From the NCBI GenBank assembly GCA_039738415.1, contig JBCLLY010000002.1:9792-73791 (forward strand): DNA of 64,000 nucleotides, read 5' to 3'. Source of the stretch: Candidatus Levyibacteriota bacterium (GTDB taxonomy: Bacteria; Patescibacteriota; Microgenomatia; Levybacterales; GWA1-39-11). Shown piece by piece: positions 4,555 through 59,483 of the stretch (position 1 is the stretch's first letter; each line of letters starts with the position of its first letter). Under the pieces are notes generated by a model. That model was not told the DNA's origin. It made no database searches and worked only from the letters and a program-made list of their open reading frames with translations. The translations under genes were made by a program, and so were the position numbers.

Positions 4555-6534
4555 ATGAAATTTAGACTTGAGTCCAAATATAAACCTACCGGTGATCAGC
4601 CGGAGGCAATAGAAAATCTAACTAAAGGTTTTAAAAGTGGTAAAAAAAATCAGGTTCTTCTGGGAGTAACGGGTAGTGGAAAGACTTTTACAATTGCTAA
4701 TGTAATTCAAAATATCCAAAAGCCAACGCTGGTTATTTCACACAATAAAACTCTTGCAGCCCAACTCTATCAAGAACTTAGGGACTTTTTTCCTGAAAAT
4801 GCAGTTAGTTATTTTGTATCATATTACGATTTTTATCAGCCCGAAGCATATATGCCGACAACTGATACTTATATCGCAAAAGAAACTGAAGTAAACGACG
4901 AAATTGATAGATTAAGGCTTAGCGCAACCACGAATATTCTAACCCGTCCTGACACGATAGTCGTCGCCTCGGTTAGTGCTATTTACAATTTAGGTTCTCC
5001 TGACGAGTACGGAAAAGTCGTATTGGAAGTTGCCCAAGGAATGAAAATAGGCAGGCACTCAATTTTAGACCGCTTACTTGACTTAATGTATGCGCGAAAT
5101 GACTACGACTTTAAAAGGAGCACGTTTAGAGTTCGCGGAGATACTATTGAAGTACTTCCCGGTTATGAAAATCGCGGGGTGAGAATTACTCTAGCGGGAG
5201 ATTTTGTGGAAAAAATTGAACGTTTCAATCCCTTGAACGGGGAGCTTTTTGAAAGTATAAAAAACATAGTTATTTATCCGGCAAAACACTATATAACAGA
5301 CCCTACTAGCTATGATAGGGTGTTTGTTCAAATAAGAGCTGATATGGAAGAGCAAGTGAATTTTTTTCTTAAAAAAGGAAAACTGCTGGAGGCAAGGCGA
5401 TTAAAGCAAAGAACTGAATACGATTTAAAAATGATAAAAGAGTTGGGATATGTAAATGGGATTGAAAATTATTCCAGATATTTTGATGGAAGAGCGCCTG
5501 GCGACCCGCCATATTCTTTACTCGAATTTTTTAATAAAGTATCTGATGACTGGCTTCTTGTAATAGATGAATCTCATATGACAGTTCCACAAATTAGAGG
5601 GATGTATAACGGAGATCGTTCCCGTAAAGAAACTTTAGTAAATTATGGATTCCGTCTTCCGGCAGCATATGATAACAGACCGCTTAAATTTGAAGAATTT
5701 GAGCAAAAGATTAAAAAAACAATTTTTATGAGTGCTACACCCAGTGAGTGGGAGAAGGAAAAGTCAGGGAGGAAAAATATAGTTGAGCAATTGGTTCGTC
5801 CTACGGGAATTATAGATCCTGAGATAGAAATAAGAAAAACCGAAGGGCAAATATCGGATTTGATAGAAGAAATAAAAAAGACAGCTGAAAAAAAAGAGAG
5901 AGTTTTGGTTACAACACTTACAAAGAGGATGGCTGAGGATTTGACTACCTTTATGGAAGAGAGAGAAATTAAGGTAAATTATTTGCATAGTGGTGTAGAC
6001 ACTCTAGCACGCCAGGACGTGCTGGATGATTTGCGAAGCGGAGTCTATGATGTAGTCGTGGGAATAAACTTGCTCAGGGAAGGACTCGATTTACCCGAAG
6101 TATCACTTGTTGCAATACTTGATGCAGATAGAGAGGGGTTTTTGAGAAGCAAAACGTCACTCGTTCAAATCATGGGTCGTGCTGCACGCAGAGTTGGCGC
6201 TAGAGTTATACTTTATGCTGATAAAAATACAAGATCGATGAATGAAGCGATTGAAGAGGTAGATAGGCGTCGGCAATATCAAATGGAATACAATAAAAAA
6301 AACGGTATTACACCGGAAACAATTGAAAAAGCAATCCGCGCGAAGTTAATTGAGCTAAAGGAGAAAACAATTGAGGATTTAAAACCGCTTATGGATAGGG
6401 AAGTTTTACTGCCTGATGATAGGGAGAAATTAATCAAGCGCTTGCGCAGTGAAATGAAAGCCGCAGCAAAGGATTTGGATTTTGAAACCGCTGCGCAGCT
6501 GAGAGATAAAGTCCGCTATTTACAACAGCGCTAG
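4555..6534 (+). CDS. uvrB: excinuclease ABC subunit B
   Basis: From M55 of ORF 4393..6534 the protein reads MKFRLESKYKPTGDQPEAI...GVTGSGKTF, the canonical UvrB N-terminus. A C-terminal UVR motif is present. TGCTATAAT lies at 4537-4545. Confidence 0.95.
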   Translation: MKFRLESKYKPTGDQPEAIENLTKGFKSGKKNQVLLGVTGSGKTFTIANVIQNIQKPTLVISHNKTLAAQLYQELRDFFPENAVSYFVSYYDFYQPEAYMPTTDTYIAKETEVNDEIDRLRLSATTNILTRPDTIVVASVSAIYNLGSPDEYGKVVLEVAQGMKIGRHSILDRLLDLMYARNDYDFKRSTFRVRGDTIEVLPGYENRGVRITLAGDFVEKIERFNPLNGELFESIKNIVIYPAKHYITDPTSYDRVFVQIRADMEEQVNFFLKKGKLLEARRLKQRTEYDLKMIKELGYVNGIENYSRYFDGRAPGDPPYSLLEFFNKVSDDWLLVIDESHMTVPQIRGMYNGDRSRKETLVNYGFRLPAAYDNRPLKFEEFEQKIKKTIFMSATPSEWEKEKSGRKNIVEQLVRPTGIIDPEIEIRKTEGQISDLIEEIKKTAEKKERVLVTTLTKRMAEDLTTFMEEREIKVNYLHSGVDTLARQDVLDDLRSGVYDVVVGINLLREGLDLPEVSLVAILDADREGFLRSKTSLVQIMGRAARRVGARVILYADKNTRSMNEAIEEVDRRRQYQMEYNKKNGITPETIEKAIRAKLIELKEKTIEDLKPLMDREVLLPDDREKLIKRLRSEMKAAAKDLDFETAAQLRDKVRYLQQR

Positions 6535-17847: not shown

Positions 17848-17931
17848 ACGAATATTATAGCAAGAATTGAATTTATTTGTAGCTTAAGGATAAATTCTGT
17901 TAAAATAACAATACTCTCATTTGGGAGAAGG

Positions 17932-18004
17932 GCGCCTGTAGCTTAATGGATAGAGCACCTCGCTTCGGACGAGGCGGTTGGGGGTTCGACTCCCTTCAGG
18001 CGCG
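17932..18004 (+). tRNA. tRNA-Arg(UCG)
   Basis: Hand-folded cloverleaf: acceptor GCGCCTG/CAGGCGC, anticodon arm CCTCG CTTCGGA CGAGG, T loop TTCGACT. No encoded CCA. Confidence 0.85.
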
Positions 18005-18053
18005 CCTCACTTTGTTCGGCGTAAACGCCTTTAATAGTTGAACAGGTTTATAT

Positions 18054-18299
18054 ATGTGGTTCGTTTACATACTCGAGTGTTCCGACAGAACTCTCTTTAC
18101 AGGAATAATAACTAATGTTTTGCGGAGAATTAACGAGCATAATTTAAAAATTGGTGCGAAGTCTTTAAGAGGAAAGTTGCCCGTTAAACTAGTATATAAA
18201 GAATTGTATAATAGTCAAACCAAAGCCGCACAAAGAGAGCGAGAAATTAAAGGGTGGAGGCGAGAAAAGAAATTAAATTTAATTCAGGGTTTACCCTGA
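18054..18299 (+). CDS. GIY-YIG nuclease superfamily protein (UPF0213-like)
   Basis: 81 aa. WFVYILECSDRTLFTGIITNVLRRINEHN...REREIKGWRREKK. It lies between two tRNA genes. Confidence 0.8.
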   Translation: MWFVYILECSDRTLFTGIITNVLRRINEHNLKIGAKSLRGKLPVKLVYKELYNSQTKAAQREREIKGWRREKKLNLIQGLP

Positions 18300-18315
18300 A
18301 TAGCGCAGCTATGAA

Positions 18316-18388
18316 GGGCGACTAGCTCAATTGGTAGAGCAATTCCCTCTTAAGGAATCGGTTCAGGGTCCGAGTCCCTGGTCGCTCA
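18316..18388 (+). tRNA. tRNA-Lys(CUU) with atypical T loop (TCCGAGT, C at position 55)
   Basis: Acceptor GGGCGAC/GTCGCTC, anticodon arm ATTCC CTCTTAA GGAAT, T arm CAGGG TCCGAGT CCCTG. Confidence 0.8.
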
Positions 18389-18504
18389 CACTTTAACAAT
18401 CTCAGTGTTTCACACTGAGATTGTTGGAGATTGGTCGGGACGAGGAGTTTATCCCGCTGAGCAAAGCGAAGGAACTGAAAGCGGGAAGTCCCTGGTCGCT
18501 CACA
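18373..18504 (+). repeat. direct repeat of the tRNA-Lys 3' end flanking a structured 96-nt spacer
   Basis: AGTCCCTGGTCGCTCACA occurs at 18373-18390 and again at 18487-18504. The spacer holds a perfect 14-bp hairpin (18395-18425) and the motif GGGAC GAGGAGTTTAT CCCGC...GCGGG. Confidence 0.85.
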
Positions 18505-18568
18505 AAATTCCGCCGATATGCTTTAATATATTGACAGGAATGTTGAGATCAATGGTATAATATTTTAC

Positions 18569-18976
18569 ATGGTAAAAAACTCTACTTCAAACAAACCACT
18601 CTCAAAAGACGATTTGGATACAGCCCTTAAGGCATATGCAACTAAAGCAGATTTGAACAAAGCAGTTAAGGGCTCTGAAAGAATTTTAAGAGCTGAAATT
18701 CTAAAAGTTGAAGGAAAAGTAGAGAATGTTGAAGTTGTCCTGAAAAGACTTGAAGGAAAAGTAGAGAATGTTGAAGATGGTCTGAAAAGACTTGAAGGAA
18801 AAGTAGACAAAATGGATTCCACAATTGAAAAGATTTCAAATCAATTGGATGGTTTTGTTGGAAGAGTTGACGATTTAACCAACGATAACGAGATTGGCGC
18901 TGACCAAATTCATCGACTGCGTGAAGATGTTAAAGAACGCGGTAAAAGAATCGCAAAACTTGAATCCCCAAATTAA
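18569..18976 (+). CDS. coiled-coil protein with 14-aa (42-nt) tandem repeats
   Basis: Repeats read EGKVENVEVVLKRL / EGKVENVEDGLKRL / EGKVDKMD. TTGACA (18531-18536) and TGGTATAAT (18553-18561) sit 7 nt before the ATG, so the mRNA is apparently leaderless. Confidence 0.6.
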   Translation: MVKNSTSNKPLSKDDLDTALKAYATKADLNKAVKGSERILRAEILKVEGKVENVEVVLKRLEGKVENVEDGLKRLEGKVDKMDSTIEKISNQLDGFVGRVDDLTNDNEIGADQIHRLREDVKERGKRIAKLESPN

Positions 18977-31755: not shown

Positions 31756-31913
31756 ATCTACATAGCGGGCAAATCTATTCTTGTCAGCCAAGGCTGATCC
31801 GCCTCTGGCGGAAGCTACTAGAGCATATGTTATATTTTACCTAAAAAAAATGTAATTTGAAAGTTTTTAAAGCCTAGCAGTTTTTTTAATATGATGCCAA
31901 GTCGGACTCCTTG

Positions 31914-37158: not shown

Positions 37159-37223
37159 ATTTACTATTATTAAAGCATTATCAATATTTTGTCAACCCCC
37201 TGTTTACCCCGTATATTTGAGTG

Positions 37224-37281
37224 TGGACTCGAGGGGATTCGAACCCCTAATCTGTCCGACGTACATCGGGCCGCTCTATAC
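37224..37281 (-). pseudogene. 3' tRNA fragment (D-arm 3' strand to discriminator), degenerate anticodon arm
   Basis: The minus strand reads TATAGAGCG GCCCGATGTACGTCGGAC AGATT AGGGG TTCGAAT CCCCT CGAGTCC A. No matching 5' acceptor strand is present nearby. Confidence 0.5.
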
Positions 37282-37341
37282 TGTGGACCGGATCCCGCTT
37301 AGCGGGACAACCCCTCCATTTTCGCCCCCTAGATTTAACTG

Positions 37342-37414
37342 TGGACCTTAGGGGATTCGAACCCCTCACCTTTTCTATGCCATAGAAACGCTCTACCAAA
37401 TGAGCTAAAGGCCC
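37342..37414 (-). tRNA. tRNA-Ala(GGC)
   Basis: Acceptor GGGCCTT/AAGGTCC (with G3:U70), anticodon arm TTTCT ATGGCAT AGAAA, T arm AGGGG TTCGAAT CCCCT. TACAAT lies 12 nt upstream. Confidence 0.85.
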
Positions 37415-39026: not shown

Positions 39027-39112
39027 CTTGAAATTCAATTGGGACGAGAAGTTTATCCTGCTGTGCCCGCCTCTGGAGGGAACGAAGTTGAAGGAAGTCC
39101 CGCCCCAGGCAC
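39011..39112 (+). repeat. direct repeat of the tRNA-Leu(UAA) 3' end flanking a 68-nt spacer with the GAGAAGTTTAT motif
   Basis: AGTCCCGCCCCAGGCAC occurs at 39011-39027 and again at 39096-39112. The spacer contains GGGAC GAGAAGTTTAT CCTGC (39041-39061). Confidence 0.85.
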
Positions 39113-49393: not shown

Positions 49394-49522
49394 CGACTGA
49401 TTTAACAAAATCTTAAATTTCTCCGCCTGCTGCTGGACATGGATCCCCTTCGATTCGCTCAGGGTAAACGAACCGAGATAAACAGCTCCAAAGGCTATCC
49501 CGCCAATTTGTCTTTACCAGAG

Positions 49523-52346: not shown

Positions 52347-52418
52347 GACAAATCGTCAATTAGTTCTAGAATGTCCTTAAAAGAATCATAATTTGGAATA
52401 AAATCGCAGAGTATGGGA

Positions 52419-52859
52419 TTACTCTCTGGTATAAAGTCCAACCAAAGTCGCTTCATCAATAACATGAGGCTTTATAGCTTCTTCTATTTCATCAGTAGTC
52501 ATATCTTCCTCAAGGCCAGGTTCGCCGTCGAGCGCAAATAGTCTGAAACGATATCTATGAGTACCTCTAGGGGGGCAAGGACCTCCCCATTGGGCATGTC
52601 CGAAGTCATTCATGGTTAAAATTGCATCATCAGGTACCGAATCCTCGTAAATTTCCTCAGTTTCAGGCGGAATATTTAGAACCACCCAGTGAGTCCATGT
52701 TTTTCCTACCGCATCAGGATCGTCAACTATTAACGCGAGGGACTTAATATCCTCAGGTACGTCGATAAACTTTAACGGCGGATTTACATCTGCGCCGTCA
52801 CAAGTATATTCTGCAGGAATCATTTCATTGTTTCCGAATGCACTACTAGTTATCTTCAT
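52419..52859 (-). CDS. YbhB/YbcL-family phosphatidylethanolamine-binding (Raf kinase inhibitor-like) protein
   Basis: DDPDA...HWVVLNIP...GGPCPPRGTHRYRFRLFALD. Confidence 0.85.
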   Translation of the reverse strand: MKITSSAFGNNEMIPAEYTCDGADVNPPLKFIDVPEDIKSLALIVDDPDAVGKTWTHWVVLNIPPETEEIYEDSVPDDAILTMNDFGHAQWGGPCPPRGTHRYRFRLFALDGEPGLEEDMTTDEIEEAIKPHVIDEATLVGLYTRE

Positions 52860-53106
52860 AATTTATTTATACATTATTTCGTATGTCTTTTACAAAAAAG
52901 ACCCGAATTATCCATTGTAACCAAAAATGATTAATTGTCAACCCGTTCGGCCCGCTTCGACTCAGCGAGGCGAGCAGGCTCAGGGCAAGCAGGGTTGATA
53001 CTGAATGAACGTAGTGAACCGAATGTATCAACCCAAAGGTATCAAGTCTTATAGGATATAGATTGTAATATCTTTAATATTTGCTACAATATGAAGGTGT
53101 AATTTT

Positions 53107-53187
53107 GCCGAGGTGGTGAAATGGTATACACGCAGCCTTGAGGTGGCTGTGCCGCAAGGCGTGCAGGTTCAAGTCCTGTTCTCGGCA
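53107..53187 (+). tRNA. tRNA-Leu(GAG)
   Basis: Acceptor GCCGAGG/TCTCGGC, anticodon arm CAGCC TTGAGGT GGCTG, long variable arm, T loop TTCAAGT. A TTGTAA-N16-TACAAT promoter lies upstream. Confidence 0.85.
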
Positions 53188-53381
53188 CACTTCGCTTCGT
53201 TCAGTGTAAACTGATTGAGTGAAAGCTTTGGTTTGTAAACTAAAGAATAATGAAGCTTGCTACTTTTAAAATTGCAACGCAATTTGTCATCCCTCCTAGG
53301 CGGGATGAAATGAGGAGAAATGACGAAGCGTAAAGGTTTTAAGCTCTGCTTAAAACCGCTAAGCGGAGTCCACTAGGACAC

Positions 53382-53456
53382 GCGGGGGTAGTTCAGCGGT
53401 AGAACGCTTCCTTGCCAAGGAAGAGGTCGCCGGTTCGAATCCGGTTCCCCGCTCCA
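53382..53456 (+). tRNA. tRNA-Gly(GCC), with encoded CCA
   Basis: Acceptor GCGGGGG/TCCCCGC with U73, followed by CCA (53454-53456). Anticodon arm CTTCC TTGCCAA GGAAG. Confidence 0.85.
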
Positions 53457-53593
53457 GAATTAGAGGTGGGGAATTGGCTTATTGGACATCTTATGACGAT
53501 GGATCAGAAATATGTGCAGTGCTTCCATTGATTAGGAATTTTCGAAAAAGTAGGTTCGAGCCATTATTTTCTACGCACGATAAAAAAATATTT

Positions 53594-53640
53594 TCCTGGT
53601 GATGGGATTCGAACCCATTTGTAAACTGAGACTGAGCTAA
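53594..53640 (-). pseudogene. internally deleted tRNA-like remnant
   Basis: The minus strand reads TTAGCTCAGT CTCAGTTTACAA ATGGG TTCGAAT CCCAT CACCAGG A. The D-arm start, a TAC-containing loop and the T arm are present, but no 5' acceptor strand. Confidence 0.4.
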
Positions 53641-53662
53641 ACAATTTTGGTATACTGCTAAT

Positions 53663-54301
53663 GTGGTAATTGATATACATATTCTTCTTGGTTCGGGACG
53701 CCTTCTTCCATACCAGAGTCAAATTAAAAATCGATTTGATAAATTAATCACAATAGTAAAAAAACAACTGTCGTTAGGCAATGTTGACGTAGTAGTTTAC
53801 GATAACCCTGAAGGTGCTATTCCTGAAATAGGGGTTGGAGGGTATTCGCCTAACGCACATTTAATTTTTATATCTCTTGATCCACAGTTTCCCAATTTTC
53901 AACAGACTATTGATGAAGAATTAAAACGAACAATAGCGCATGAATTACATCACACATTAAGGTGGAGAGATCCAGGATATGGAGAAACCTTATTTGAGGC
54001 GTTAATTACTGAAGGATTAGCTGACCATTTTGATATGGAAGTGAATAATATAGATAATCCTGAGCCTTGGGATACAGCTTTAAGCGACAAACAGCTAGTT
54101 GAGATTAAAGCTAAGGCGCAAAAAGAGTTTGATAATAAGAACTATAATCACAATGAATGGTTTTTTGGATACAAAGAAAAAAATATTCCAAGATGGGCCG
54201 GATATACATTAGGATTTAAACTCGTAGAAGATTATTTGAAAAGGAATCCACATAAAAAACCGTCACAACTCTATAGTGCTCACCCGGAAGATTTTAGATA
54301 A
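53663..54301 (+). CDS. predicted Zn-dependent peptidase (DUF2268/YjaZ-like, HExxH)
   Basis: IAHELHHTLRW...ALITEGLADHF. It has a GTG start 6 nt after TATACT. Confidence 0.55.
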   Translation: MVIDIHILLGSGRLLPYQSQIKNRFDKLITIVKKQLSLGNVDVVVYDNPEGAIPEIGVGGYSPNAHLIFISLDPQFPNFQQTIDEELKRTIAHELHHTLRWRDPGYGETLFEALITEGLADHFDMEVNNIDNPEPWDTALSDKQLVEIKAKAQKEFDNKNYNHNEWFFGYKEKNIPRWAGYTLGFKLVEDYLKRNPHKKPSQLYSAHPEDFR

Positions 54302-54331
54302 TTAGTTTCTAATAAATAAAAGTCGATCCCT

Positions 54332-54498
54332 ACTTCTCGCCCTGCGCTATGTAGGGTGCAACAGCAAACACTAAGTTTATCGAAGTGTGGGCGCTAGAGG
54401 GCTCCCCGATGTTCATCGGGATAAACTTCTCGCCCTCAACTATGTAGGTTGCAACAGCAAACACTGAGTTTATCTAAAGTGTGGGCGCTAGAGGGCTC
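54332..54498 (-). repeat. two-copy tandem repeat (period about 93-94 nt) of the tRNA-Val(UAC) 3' end plus trailer
   Basis: Units 54332-54404 and 54425-54498 differ at about 7 positions. Each ends (tRNA sense: begins) with GAGCCCTCTAGCGCCCACACTT. They are separated by the hairpin CCCGATGAACATCGGG. Confidence 0.85.
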
Positions 54499-54554
54499 GA
54501 ACCCCTGACATTTTCGGTGTAAACGAAACGCTCTACCAGCTGAGCTAAGCGCCC
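54482..54554 (-). tRNA. tRNA-Val(UAC)
   Basis: Acceptor GGGCGCT/AGCGCCC, anticodon arm TTTCG TTTACAC CGAAA, T arm AGGGG TTCGAGC CCTCT. Confidence 0.85.
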
Positions 54555-54639
54555 GACGTCAAAATTAATTTCGCACGTTCGTTTATCGCAAAGCAATAAA
54601 CTTTTCACTCAATCAGTTTACACTGAACGAAGTGAAGTG

Positions 54640-54712
54640 TGCTGAGACCAGGAATCGAACCCGGATAACTTGTTCTTCAGACAAGCGCCTTGACCAACTT
54701 GGCAATCTCAGC
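54640..54712 (-). tRNA. tRNA-Phe(GAA)
   Basis: Acceptor GCTGAGA/TCTCAGC, anticodon arm CTTGT CTGAAGA ACAAG, T arm CCGGG TTCGATT CCTGG. The D arm is atypical (GCCAAGTTGGTCAAGGC). Confidence 0.75.
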
Positions 54713-54824
54713 ATGACTATTGGTTTTTATCAAAAAACTACTTTTAGAATTATACAAAAAGTTAAGCTCAATATCCATATGAACTAATGCATGATGCTAA
54801 AATTGAGGCTATTTGTAAAGGTGT

Positions 54825-55187
54825 TCAGGATAGTTTTCGGGCTCTTCTATAATGAAATATGAACAGAACTGTTCCTACGACTATAAAAGTAATTGCACTC
54901 GCAACATCCGTAACTTTTTTAACTTCTCGCTCGCGGACGAGGTCTTCCTCGCATCTTTTTAATAGGTCGATATTGGATGGAGTTTCTGAACCCTCAACCT
55001 TAACGGGAGCGGGTTCTAAGTAGCTACATCTTCCAGCCTCATAATCAAGATAATAATTATCCAGGAAAAAATTTCTAACCGCAAAATCCGAAAGTTTGAA
55101 TATCCCCATGACCAAAAGGATTATCCCAATTGCTGAAAAAACGTAAAAATAAGCAGTCTTTATAGAATGTCCGAAATCTTTTGCCAT
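54825..55187 (-). CDS. hypothetical two-TM membrane protein
   Basis: 120 aa with N- and C-terminal hydrophobic helices. Confidence 0.4.
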   Translation of the reverse strand: MAKDFGHSIKTAYFYVFSAIGIILLVMGIFKLSDFAVRNFFLDNYYLDYEAGRCSYLEPAPVKVEGSETPSNIDLLKRCEEDLVREREVKKVTDVASAITFIVVGTVLFIFHYRRARKLS

Positions 55188-55244
55188 AAATTAATAATAG
55201 TAAATTCAAACACCAACCGCAATAGCTTTGTTGCCTTTGCGCTG

Positions 55245-55327
55245 TGCTCGAGGGGAGAGTTGAACTCCCACATCATTACTGACACTGGCTCCTGAAGCCA
55301 GCGCGTCTACCATTTCGCCACTCGAGC
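55245..55327 (-). tRNA. tRNA-Leu(CAG)
   Basis: Acceptor GCTCGAG/CTCGAGC, anticodon arm CTGGC TTCAGGA GCCAG, long variable arm, T arm GGGAG TTCAACT CTCCC. Confidence 0.85.
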
Positions 55328-55471
55328 ATTGCGGGCAAGCCATTTAAGCTTATATCAAATTGTATCAATCAAATGCAGTCGAAACAAATCTGAATTTATG
55401 GCTTTATTTTAGTGTTTATCGCGCCCTATCAAGCTAATTTTTTCTTGATTTTCTGTCCTCAATGTGCAACT

Positions 55472-56074
55472 ATGGAAGTTATGGGTAAGAAAATAGCATT
55501 TATAGCCGGGTATTTTTTTAGCTCACTTGTTCTTTTTCTAATTTTAACTTTTGCGCTTTTATCTACTTTATTTAATTCTGGGCAGCTTCACAAAACTCTT
55601 ATTTACGAAAGCACCGCTCAAAAACCCAGATATCAAGCCTTGCCCGACAAAACACGCGAAGTTCTTTCCGAAACTACAATTGAAGATGGAAGAGTAACAG
55701 CGCTACAAAAGTTTTTTGCCCAATACGAATCGCCATTAGAACCCCATGCCCAACTAATAGTGGAGCAAGCTGATAACTACGGACTGGATTATAGACTTTT
55801 ACCGGCAATTGCAATGAAGGAGAGTACCTTGTGTCATAAAATTCCAGAGAATTCATATAACTGCTGGGGGTATGGGATTTACGGCGATAAGGTAACTCGC
55901 TTTGAAAATTTCGAAGAAGCAATTTCTACCGTGTCAAAGGGACTAGGGGAGAGATATATAGACATAGGACTTGTTGATCCATTCGAAATAATGACTAAGT
56001 ATAATCCAGTAAGCACTGGTTCTTGGGCTGAAACGGTAAGTTATGTGATGGATAGGATATCCACACGTCTATAA
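55472..56074 (+). CDS. membrane-anchored SLT-like (lytic transglycosylase-like) domain protein, paralog 1
   Basis: ADNYGLDYRLLPAIAMKESTLC...CWGYGIYG. It is a paralog of 56358..56900. The start was chosen at M21 of ORF 55412. Confidence 0.5.
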   Translation: MEVMGKKIAFIAGYFFSSLVLFLILTFALLSTLFNSGQLHKTLIYESTAQKPRYQALPDKTREVLSETTIEDGRVTALQKFFAQYESPLEPHAQLIVEQADNYGLDYRLLPAIAMKESTLCHKIPENSYNCWGYGIYGDKVTRFENFEEAISTVSKGLGERYIDIGLVDPFEIMTKYNPVSTGSWAETVSYVMDRISTRL

Positions 56075-56114
56075 TTAGCCTCAAAACAGTCCCAACAGCC
56101 TGTAGTTTTACCCC

Positions 56115-56143
56115 TTGACAAACCTATAGTCACGTGCTATACT
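56115..56143 (+). promoter_or_regulatory. near-consensus sigma70-type promoter
   Basis: TTGACA (56115-56120), 17 nt, then TGCTATACT (56135-56143). Confidence 0.6.
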
Positions 56144-56357
56144 TCGCAATAGGTCCTAAGGTAGCCCAAAACTACTTTAGGATTTTTTAAAGGCGAAAGC
56201 CTAACCCTGAGCTTGCTCGCGGTGAGTTTGCGCAATCCGTCGAAGGGTATAACCAATTAGTCTCCACTTCCCCACAAGTTTTAGTAATCCTCAAGTTTCG
56301 TTTTAAAAACGCAGCTTGAACAATTACAAAAACTTTCGCCTCATCGGCGAACTATTT

Positions 56358-56900
56358 ATGAATAAACTAATAATCATAGCAGTGATAATTATTGCTGCAT
56401 TAGTATTACCCAATAAAATTGAGGCTTATCAGAATGAACAAACTTCATCTGCAAAGCTTGCGTTTAACGTGGAAAGAATAAGCTCCGAAGATATCCGTGT
56501 TCAGGCTCTGCGGAGGATGTTTGAAAAGTACAGCTCTCCTCTTGCAGACATGGCTGGTTCTTATGTGGAGTTTGCCGACAAAAATGGAGTAGACTGGAAA
56601 TTACTTCCTGCGATTTCAGGTCTTGAATCATCTTTTGGTAAAAGACTTATGCCTAACTCGCACAATGCGTACGGTTGGGGTGGCGGATATATTTACTTTG
56701 ATTCGTGGGAACATGGAATTGACACGATTACTAAAGCGCTTTCTGCAAAGTATTATGCTAGGGGTGCTGATACAGTGTGGACCATTGGTCCAATTTACGC
56801 TGAATCTCCCACATGGGCTATTCGTGTTAATAGCTTTATGCAGAAAATTGAACAGGAATATGTAACATTACTTCGTGATGAAGTAAAGATAACTATCTAA
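56358..56900 (+). CDS. membrane-anchored SLT-like domain protein, paralog 2
   Basis: ADKNGVDWKLLPAISGLESSFG...AYGWGGGYIYF. The start was chosen at ATG 56358 (MNKLIIIAVIII). Confidence 0.5.
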   Translation: MNKLIIIAVIIIAALVLPNKIEAYQNEQTSSAKLAFNVERISSEDIRVQALRRMFEKYSSPLADMAGSYVEFADKNGVDWKLLPAISGLESSFGKRLMPNSHNAYGWGGGYIYFDSWEHGIDTITKALSAKYYARGADTVWTIGPIYAESPTWAIRVNSFMQKIEQEYVTLLRDEVKITI

Positions 56901-57003
56901 TCCCTGTGGAAATCATGCCCTCACGCATTGTATAATACCACTAAAGATAACTTTGAAGTTTGATTTTCATAATTCTTGCTTCATAATTCATGATTCTTTT
57001 TTT

Positions 57004-57086
57004 GCCCGGGTGGTGAAATGGTATACGCGCTGGTTTTAGGAACCAGTGTCCGTAAGGACGTGGAGGTTCAAGTCCTCTCCCGGGCA
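57004..57086 (+). tRNA. tRNA-Leu(UAG)
   Basis: Acceptor GCCCGGG/CCCGGGC, anticodon arm CTGGT TTTAGGA ACCAG, long variable arm, T arm GGAGG TTCAAGT CCTCT. Confidence 0.85.
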
Positions 57087-59302: not shown

Positions 59303-59483
59303 GCGCGCATAGCTCAGTGGTAGAGTACTTCATTGACACCTGCCCGCTATGTACTTGGATCTATAGCTCAGTTGGTTAGAGCGTTGCATTGACATTGCAA
59401 AGGTCAGTGGTTCGAGTCCACTTAGATCCACAAGCAAGGCAGGCGGGTCGAAGGGGTCCATGGTTCAAACCCATGTGCGCGCA
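59303..59483 (+). tRNA. tRNA-Val(GAC) interrupted after the anticodon loop by a 109-nt insert (outer gene)
   Basis: The 5' half 59303-59339 and 3' half 59449-59483 share a 7/7 acceptor stem (GCGCGCA/TGCGCGC), an anticodon loop TTGACAC and a T arm CATGG TTCAAAC CCATG. Joined, they give 72 nt. Confidence 0.65.
59357..59430 (+). tRNA. tRNA-Val(GAC) (inner gene, complete)
   Basis: Acceptor GGATCTA/TAGATCC, anticodon arm TTGCA TTGACAT TGCAA, T arm AGTGG TTCGAGT CCACT. Confidence 0.85.

Follow-up and report, generated by a model that had tools for sequence, protein, structure and literature searches.

Two tRNA genes that face each other in a Candidatus Levyibacteriota contig, tRNA-Leu(GAG) (53107-53187, + strand) and tRNA-Phe(GAA) (54640-54712, - strand), are each followed by an almost identical 37-nt structured trailer. 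The locus raises the question of what such a trailer is, how it came to stand at both borders of the same 1.4-kb segment, and whether it shaped the order of the tRNA genes in between. The analysis covered 64,000 nt (contig JBCLLY010000002.1, positions 9,792 to 73,791; "the window", in whose numbering positions are given), a bacterial sequence of 36.6% G+C with 16 tRNA genes and genes for UvrA, UvrB and a Mur ligase. It is matched by contig JBCLLX010000001.1 of the metagenome-assembled genome (MAG) GCA_039731645.1, the genes of which include DUF5660 and DUF5665 domains, and its nearest named relatives are Candidatus Levybacteria. Judged by its architecture, the trailer belongs to a family of small putative insertion elements, of which it makes up one end; the family is linked to GIY-YIG nuclease genes and includes a 16-nt duplication of the tRNA end, a context missed by an earlier account made from the letters alone (the sequence-only reading). 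With a probability of roughly 0.55, we favour the explanation that it is the left terminal module of such elements at tRNA ends, which would be remnants of GIY-YIG cassettes similar to SegB of phage T4 and whose repeats would have driven rearrangement.

A hairpin module at tRNA position 74

The 37-mer has exactly two copies in the window, at 53188-53224 (+, 0 mismatches) and 54603-54639 (-, 1 mismatch), with 36/37 positions identical, and the same pattern search found none in 100 shuffles. By the Rfam tRNA boundaries both copies start at tRNA position 74, directly after the discriminator A73, as the sequence-only reading had described. Its view of the trailer as structured also stands, but the fold that it drew (an outer stem CACTT/GAGTG around an inner hairpin) is shorter than the minimum free energy fold, an imperfect hairpin of 13 bp with a GUAA loop (UUCGCU.CG.UCAGU[GUAA]ACUGA.UG.AGUGAA; z about -4), with energies of -13.3/-13.7 kcal/mol in the sense strand vs -6.0/-9.9 in the antisense strand, and the stem found family-wide is a 4-bp CACT/AGTG. 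The lone G/A difference between the copies preserves pairing (G-U vs A-U). Compared across loci, the conserved unit is the first 24 nt of the trailer, here called module A. In the first copy it begins at position 74 (CACTTCRCTTCGTTCAGTGTAAAC; 53188-53211, +) and reads CACT TCGCTTCGTTC AGTG TAAAC, i.e., a 4-bp stem, an 11-nt loop and a TAAAC tail; in the second (CACTTCACTTCGTTCAGTGTAAAC; 54616-54639, -) it is identical to a 24-mer found after tRNAs in L054, L085 and L092 (L-numbers label the loci and contigs compared). The partner arm (TGATTGAGTGAAA; 53212-53224, +, and 54603-54615, -), which pairs back on module A to give the 13-bp hairpin, is restricted to the two copies of this genome.

A regular expression for the module (CACTT-N6-12-YAGTG) matched five sites in the 64 kb, all adjoining either a tRNA 3' end (Lys, Leu-GAG, Phe, Val-UAC) or a tRNA-Val 3' fragment, which is more than chance. 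The looser relatives proposed earlier are real after tRNA-Lys(CUU) (18389) and tRNA-Val(UAC) (54481), and the tRNA-Val 3' fragment at 54387 is followed by a true member as well. The relative after tRNA-Arg(UCG) is genuine but had been misparsed: its stem CGCC/GGCG overlaps tRNA positions 72-73, so that the statement that all relatives begin with CACT after the discriminator does not hold. The fragment near 37224 shows only CACT...GTAAAC, and its membership is doubtful. In the same region, the 3' half of tRNA-Ala(GGC) is duplicated together with its trailer (37198-37253 vs 37316-37371, 77% identity), and a further shortened 3' fragment follows a CCCGC TAA GCGGG hairpin.

The recurrence of the trailer after other tRNAs, which the sequence-only reading had anticipated within the genome, extends far beyond it. 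A scan of one genome per GTDB species with a pattern of T-loop, A73 and CACTT-N6-11-TYAGTGT yielded 97 loci, against a chance expectation of about 3 (our own estimate, 1.2e12 positions x pattern probability), and nearly all of them are labelled as candidate phyla radiation (CPR; Patescibacteria). The lineages include Levy-, Woese-, Davies-, Roizman-, Blackburn-, Chisholm-, Staskawicz-, Yanofsky-, Portnoy-, Wolfe-, Wildermuth- and Liptonbacteria, Paceibacterota and Saccharibacteria. The remaining loci come mostly from MAGs of "uncultured Gammaproteobacteria", and the matched tRNAs are followed by CAC, not CCA, as the search pattern prescribes. These taxonomic labels look unreliable. Loci so labelled include L003, L006, L007, L009 and L074 among others, and at least L007 and L074 show the CPR order of the tRNA cluster. 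Most of the motif matches (97/123) adjoin tRNAs called by ARAGORN, and most of the others are tandem copies or lie beside tRNA fragments. The module stands directly 3' of more than 20 tRNA isoacceptors, and in its 24-nt consensus (CACTTCGACAAGCTCAGTGTAAAC) positions left free in the search are also conserved.

The module folds into a 4-bp stem with a conserved loop of 11-12 nt (TCGNNNNNCTC; GAGCNNGTCGA in the form suited to searching other genomes) and the TAAAC tail. The stem is CACT/AGTG after tRNAs with A73, and CGCT/AGCG or CGCC/GGCG after tRNA-Arg(UCG), where tRNA positions 72-73 take part; inverted copies of the module have CCCT/AGGG, TGGT/ACCA, TCCT/AGGA, TTCT/AGAA, CTCT/AGAG or CATC/GATG. 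Thus at least nine distinct complementary stems occur, with double changes at all four stem pairs. This set had been pre-filtered for complementarity, and weight is placed on two other figures: among right ends defined only by the flanking repeat (see below) 16/18 are fully paired, which is the unbiased figure, and in 24/24 sequences an inner loop pair, which had played no part in the selection, is G-C, A-U or G-U. On this comparative evidence the module stem is covarying.

Of the module copies that follow tRNAs (106 in all), 75 stand solo, 20 belong to full elements without an open reading frame (ORF), 10 are accompanied by an ORF and one is a tandem array with neither repeat nor ORF; L017 has nine tandem modules and L071 two tandem units. 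The many solo copies, each a constant 24 nt and several with the next tRNA within 5-10 nt, bring in the main alternative, namely that the module is a host-encoded trailer acting at the RNA level (a processing, stability or termination signal, or a panhandle between tRNAs), inherited vertically in CPR bacteria, in which GIY-YIG genes merely lodge. We hold this to be possible but clearly less probable than the cassette explanation. The exact start at position 74 and the constant co-orientation of module and tRNA would suit it well. Only 5-6 of the 16 window tRNAs have the module, however; there is no U tract, as the module is followed by TAAAC and not by T runs, and no intrinsic terminator-like site in 52900-54850. 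Nor is there an Rfam family: Rfam 15 gave tRNA only at the gathering score and nothing meaningful at E<=10 over 53000-54800 and 17900-18600. A hammerhead-like ribozyme was considered for GGGAYGAGAAGUUUA...CGAAGGG and rejected, since the core positions misfit and no Rfam match was found, and a pairing of leaders with trailers around tRNAs was dropped as inconsistent between copies.

Other searches for the module were likewise negative within their scope. The tRNA-plus-module pattern had no match in 2.9 million viral contigs, and the exact trailer 22-mer none in the GTDB representative genomes, among which the source species is not included. The literature on peptide-like translations of the hairpin, on CPR tRNA trailers, on MITEs (miniature transposable elements with inverted repeats) at tRNA T-loops, on GIY-YIG proteins with CPR, tRNA or inverted repeats, and on UPF0213/YhbQ gave no description of it. 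The hairpin may resemble the widespread "GCCCT GAGCTTGTCGA AGGGC" repeats of other phyla; L123, the locus of a non-CPR nuclease homologue, is without it.

Short elements and nuclease genes

The full ORF-less layout consists of the module, an inverted partner with which it forms a long hairpin, GGGAYGAGAAGTTTA, a second, inverted copy of the module, and a direct repeat of the last 16 nt of the tRNA. It was found in about 20 loci, in addition to tRNA-Lys(CUU), tRNA-Leu(UAA) and tRNA-Val(UAC) of the window. The full elements measure 81-86 nt (about 84 nt), and the spacing from A58 to A58 is 97-102 nt in 16/20 cases. A direct repeat of 16-17 nt (A58 to N73 or C74) is present in 20/20, starting at A58 in every one and, in half of them, reaching only through C74; no empty site sharing the flanks came to light. 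Left and right ends are terminal inverted repeats of each other, sharing 15-19 of about 25 nt in 15/18 copies, and the elements are, like MITEs, short, ORF-less and bounded by terminal inverted repeats. Mismatches fall in the distal repeats, which indicates that the proximal copy is the working tRNA end.

In the window, the element after tRNA-Lys(CUU) (98 nt; 18389-18486, +) comprises an 18-bp hairpin of module A with its inverted partner, GGGACGAGGAGTTTATCC and a right-end hairpin, and is followed by the repeat of tRNA positions 58-73 (18487-18502, +). That after tRNA-Leu(UAA) is degenerate (69 nt; 39027-39111, +, including the 16-nt repeat of positions 58-73 at 39096-39111). The third, after tRNA-Val(UAC), has 78 nt (54404-54481, -), with module A, GAGAAGTTTATCC and a right-end hairpin CCCGAT/ATCGGG; it leads into the repeat of positions 58-73 (AGCCCTCTAGCGCCCA; 54388-54403, -) and then into a distal second copy of the tRNA-Val(UAC) trailer (54322-54387, -) that begins with module A (CACTTCGATAAACTTAGTG...). 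Downstream of tRNA-Gln(UUG) there is a partial second gene copy, from the anticodon arm to G57 (49445-49521, -), which is followed at T-loop position 57/58 by a right-end hairpin module (TTTACCCTGAGCGAATCGAAGGGG) and then by a decayed 58-73 segment.

A direct repeat of the 3' part of a tRNA from the T-loop onwards is the classic signature of tRNA-targeting tyrosine integrases, and the trailers and tRNA 3' fragments, several of which lie in the window, could be read as attL/attR scars of integrase islands or prophages deleted from the T-loop region. We regard this as improbable, since the "island" is a uniform 84 nt or so in about 20 independent loci, the identical sequence occurs at more than 10 tRNA species, the repeat invariably stops at the tRNA boundary, the gene tables show no adjacent integrase gene, and the viral contigs had no match.

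The tRNA-sense strand gives the more stable fold in 18/18 full elements, by 7 kcal/mol on average, and the element folds contain 68 G-U pairs in sense vs 19 in antisense. Because sense folds are favoured and rich in G-U pairing, the hairpins appear to have been selected in the tRNA-sense strand, and they are probably read in that strand, either as transcript or as single-stranded DNA. This preference would be expected of a host trailer too, as would the position of the right-end hairpin, which abuts or overlaps +1 of the next tRNA so that an element fills the interval from RNase Z to RNase P. The 16-nt duplication, the tandem arrays and the inverted-repeat termini are left unexplained by a host trailer.

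Other versions of the element, of about 350-400 nt, hold a gene for a GIY-YIG (UPF0213) nuclease of 81-95 aa, co-oriented with the tRNA. All GIY-YIG ORFs in the loci (23/23) lie within 160 nt of a tRNA, 17 of them just downstream of a same-strand tRNA and 10 directly after the module. The same two ends with an ORF inside occur in L060, L104, L007 and the window (18003-18318), where the only gene is the GIY-YIG nuclease, not a known transposase; in L022 and L060 the 16-nt repeat is also present after the ORF. The window ORF and three locus ORFs match Pfam PF01541 (E=8e-17 to 4e-19), the UPF0213 structures 1ZG2 and 1YWL are the matches in PDB, and the GIY-YIG domain covers residues 1-75 of the 81-95-aa proteins. 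The ORFs occupy either the loop of the long hairpin or the stretch beyond the second one, which a host trailer would also accommodate (compare homing endonuclease genes in the loops of structured RNAs).

In the window the cassette lies between tRNA-Arg(UCG) and tRNA-Lys(CUU). It begins with the module variant CGCC TCACTTTGTTC GGCG TAAAC (18003-18026, +), the stem of which uses tRNA positions 72-73, continues with the GIY-YIG-only gene (81 aa, UPF0213/YhbQ type; 18054-18299, +), and ends with a right-end module, GGTTTA CCCT GAATAGCGCAGCTATGA AGGG (18288-18318, +), whose stem overlaps G1-G3 of tRNA-Lys(CUU). A look-up of homologues with the window nuclease protein, a test unbiased by the module, returned four CPR contigs (L115, L117, L119, L121), and in all four the gene has the same position, in the Arg(UCG)-Lys(CUU) slot, with a module variant adjoining the tRNA and a right-end hairpin overlapping the first bases of tRNA-Lys. 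The arrangement is thus present in 5/5 genomes. In L117 and L121 the start codon of the nuclease comes immediately after the module and the ORF reads into the tRNA-Lys gene. A homologue from a non-CPR sequence of 58% G+C has no tRNA nearby. L115 has five tandem right-end hairpin units (GTTTACCCTGA..GAAGGG; 1450-1590) between the nuclease gene and tRNA-Lys. A second type of small GIY-YIG gene lies upstream of a tRNA (L064, L067, L070, L049, and L101 at 6218-6523); it is preceded by a duplicated 5' part of the tRNA (about 17-19 nt), broken in the D-loop, and then a G+C-rich hairpin, an arrangement that mirrors the 3'-end elements. A tblastn search for relics of the nuclease gene covered 11 regions that flank tRNAs in the window, the Leu-Gly, Val-Phe and Lys flanks among them, and gave noise only; AAGTTTATTGCTTTGCGATAAAC after the Phe copy, considered as a decayed GIY-YIG start, turned out to be the conserved tRNA-Val(UAC) leader.

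The distribution of the module among orthologous tRNAs was followed by scanning metagenome contigs with the 3' end of the window tRNA-Phe and leaving the trailer free. Among the 13 loci found, two have the module (L104, L106), both with a GIY-YIG ORF, five have a different structured trailer of about 70 nt, and the other six are without the module, one of which (L105) ends at the tRNA so that the trailer is not visible. In L112 a tRNA-Phe identical to that of the window is followed only by CAGC and then by tRNA-Gly. The states seen at tRNA-Phe include an ORF (L007, L074, L104, L106), the module only (window) and neither (L112). On this evidence the module is an accessory feature, patchily distributed among orthologous tRNAs, and its absence from the tRNA-Phe of close relatives speaks against a vertically inherited host trailer. 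The trailer family of about 70 nt (L102, L103, L107, L108, L109) has CAGCGAAA... and a long hairpin with an inner hairpin, followed by TCATTCCG..CGGAATGACAG; in those genomes Leu(GAG) and Phe, which are convergent, both carry it.

The segment between the two copies

The content of the bracketed segment is as the sequence-only reading had given it. tRNA-Leu(GAG), which encodes no CCA and has a promoter-like site at 53063-53090, and its trailer are followed by a spacer with the tRNA-Gly(GCC) leader (53225-53381, +), the Gly-proximal part of which resembles the Phe-to-Gly spacers of L102, L108 and L109, and by tRNA-Gly(GCC) (53382-53456, +), the sole CCA-encoding tRNA of the window. Next come a pseudo-tRNA (53594-53642, -) with a D-arm-like piece, a piece like an anticodon loop with TAC, and an intact T-arm with the acceptor 3' strand, and a DUF2268 gene for a putative Zn-peptidase (53663-54301, +; Pfam PF10026, E=1e-32). 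Beyond the tRNA-Val(UAC) element described above lie tRNA-Val(UAC) itself (54482-54554, -) and its conserved leader (54555-54602, -), which is homologous to the leader following tRNA-Leu(GAG) in L102. The promoter-like site of tRNA-Phe is at 54777-54749. We rejected AGTCCACTAGGACAC before tRNA-Gly as a foreign tRNA fragment, since it belongs to a leader module also present in L108 and L112.

The usual CPR order, on one strand, is Leu(CAG), Leu(GAG), Val(UAC), Phe, Gly(GCC). Four relatives (L102, L107, L108, L109) have Leu(GAG)+ Val(UAC)+ ... Gly(GCC)- Phe-, whereas the window and L099 have Leu(GAG)+ Gly(GCC)+ ... Val(UAC)- Phe-. In a blastn comparison with L102 the flanks are collinear (window 52397-53188 and 54638-57013), while tRNA-Gly (98.7% identity) is reversed and has swapped its order with tRNA-Val and its leader, themselves reversed (88% over 128 nt; window 54480-54603); the flanks are also collinear with L107 and L109, relative to which tRNA-Gly (L107) and tRNA-Val (both) are inverted. 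The right breakpoint coincides with the inner edge of the right copy (about 54602-54604), and the left one falls between 53225 and about 53266, at most 40 nt from the left copy; the junction in the opposite orientation would join Leu(GAG) and its trailer to AGTTTATTGCTTTGCG... These comparisons give good support to an evolutionary inversion with the repeats at its borders, and they lend weight to the earlier suggestion that the segment was assembled by recombination between trailers: a real inversion has its ends where the element copies lie.

The other earlier suggestion, that the segment is invertible at present, finds no such support. As a programmed switch, the two copies would serve as recombination sites for the Gly-DUF2268-Val segment, and inverted repeats of 37 bp with 97% identity exactly at the borders of a segment inverted relative to relatives are what such a switch would need. 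Yet strain L099, 98.6% identical over 14 kb and with identical copies, has the same orientation, as does a second contig with the same DUF2268 protein; the gene tables show no recombinase or invertase gene nearby; and the inner genes have their own leaders, so that flipping would not obviously alter expression. We consider a switch very unlikely, and a currently switching segment is not supported by the compared genomes.

The DUF2268 gene, cargo of the inverted segment, looks like movable cargo. A homologue (80% protein identity) occurs in an unrelated gene context in L101 (9900-10639), a Levybacteria MAG, where about 25 nt upstream of the gene (CTAAACAATTTTGGTATACTGCTAA) also recur; in the window the pseudo-tRNA lies just upstream of the gene.

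Several further features of the tRNA genes were noted. tRNA-Val(GAC) is polymorphic between strains, being intact in L099 (10053-10125) and split in the anticodon loop in the window (59303-59483) by an insert of 111 nt (59339-59449). Within the insert lies a complete tRNA-Val(GAC) that differs from the split one and has CCTGCCCGCTATGTACTT and CAAGCAAGGCAGGCGGGTC at its sides; tRNA-Arg(UCU) is also preceded by a sequence similar to the left flank (31756-31773, minus strand). Upstream of the tRNA-Leu(GAG) promoter, and not at a tRNA end, a hairpin that resembles the module but has an expanded loop (CCCGC TTCGAC...GCTCAGGG CAAGC) and then a 10-bp hairpin (GGGTTGATAC/GTATCAACCC) lie at 52935-53040, with an indel relative to L099 at about 52960. 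In the tRNA genes of the window and L002-L098, position 74 is C in 266/269 (window 16/16) and CA at positions 74-75 is common, but CCA is encoded in 29 only, which suggests an unusual rule of tRNA 3'-end maturation in CPR bacteria.

Origin of the module and known systems

The explanation that we favour can be set out as a series of steps, of which the mechanism of spread is inferred. A GIY-YIG nuclease would break DNA at the end of a tRNA gene, as T4 SegB does, and once the break was repaired with cassette DNA, the hairpin module would stay behind at position 74, in some cases with a second copy of segment 58-73. On this view the 84-nt elements would be derivatives that lack an ORF, and solo modules would be what is left of the cassettes; the copies at Leu(GAG) and Phe would be ORF-less remnants of one variant that had spread or been homogenised within this genome. 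Homologous recombination between the convergent 37-bp copies would then have inverted the 1.4-kb segment. We prefer a nuclease-driven cassette because the two landmarks of SegB correspond to the exact ends of the 16-nt repeat.

Several findings weigh against this explanation. A filled and an empty site with identical flanks were found neither for the module nor for the 84-nt element, so that mobility rests on patchiness and architecture. The Arg-GIY-YIG-Lys arrangement has been kept although the nuclease is only 60-75% identical between genomes, which looks like stable vertical inheritance and not active homing. The nuclease proteins showed no DNA-binding domain beyond GIY-YIG. The solo copies (71%) uniformly comprise the 24-nt end, which would fit a self-standing functional trailer equally well, and the origin of a 16-nt duplication ending exactly at the tRNA boundary has no explanation in the cassette model. 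Finally, relatives of the L102 type carry a different trailer family, and the copies could for this reason postdate the inversion rather than have caused it. Because of the first four of these points, a host function at the RNA level stays the main rival. [quoted passage not shown]

Whatever its origin, the module is a unit of sequence and structure that is conserved across a huge and poorly understood radiation and placed with nucleotide precision at tRNA 3' ends. The cassette explanation would offer the abundant, uncharacterised UPF0213 GIY-YIG proteins a testable function, a SegB-like action on tRNA genes, and would explain why these tiny genomes contain tRNA fragments, tRNA ends in duplicate and tRNA clusters in shuffled order. 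It is also a warning for annotation, as short ORFs and "tRNA remnants" near CPR tRNAs may be products of this system.

The closest known system is SegB, a free-standing GIY-YIG homing endonuclease encoded inside the tRNA gene cluster of phage T4, which finds its sites by the T-arm motif GGTTCRANTCC, cleaves many different tRNA genes at their 3' end and co-converts neighbouring tRNA genes upon homing (PMC2330249). The CPR elements likewise have a nuclease gene lodged among tRNA genes, and their landmarks are A58 in the T-loop and the junction of N73 and C74. Unlike SegB, the CPR proteins are predicted nucleases of 81-95 aa with the catalytic domain only, and their cassettes are chromosomal and cellular, not phage-borne, and have conserved hairpins as inverted repeats on either side, in some cases together with the 16-nt duplication.

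Like MITEs and palindromic repeats (Correia elements, Rickettsia palindromic elements, and the repetitive extragenic palindromes and mosaic elements known as REP/BIME), the elements are about 84 nt long and ORF-less, end in inverted repeats, occur several times in a genome, have a direct repeat at their flank and can drive rearrangements. They differ in standing strictly at tRNA position 74, with a repeat of 16-17 nt that always spans tRNA positions 58-73, in that each terminal repeat is itself a covarying hairpin, in their conservation across a superphylum and not a genus, and in having a GIY-YIG nuclease as candidate partner enzyme in place of a DDE or HUH transposase. Casposons have terminal inverted repeats, some with internal palindromes, and target duplications with a median of 15 nt; five archaeal casposons have a target that reaches into the 3'-distal 4-7 nt of tRNA genes, and these genes stay intact (PMC4046053). 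The CPR elements also combine terminal inverted repeats with a long duplication at the tRNA end, and casposons indicate that such duplications can arise by staggered integration. They are, however, multi-kilobase elements that encode Cas1 and PolB, whereas no Cas1 is present here and the CPR duplication starts in the T-loop.

Islands of tyrosine integrases of the T-loop class similarly duplicate the 3' part of the tRNA from the T-loop to the gene end and restore the gene, but the CPR elements have no integrase, measure 84-400 nt and place one sequence at many tRNA species. A last likeness, of architecture only, is to the right-end guide RNAs of IS200/IS605-TnpB elements, with hairpin ends on one strand and a structured end next to a flanking target of about 16 nt; there is no TnpA or TnpB here, and the CPR hairpins are inverted copies of each other.

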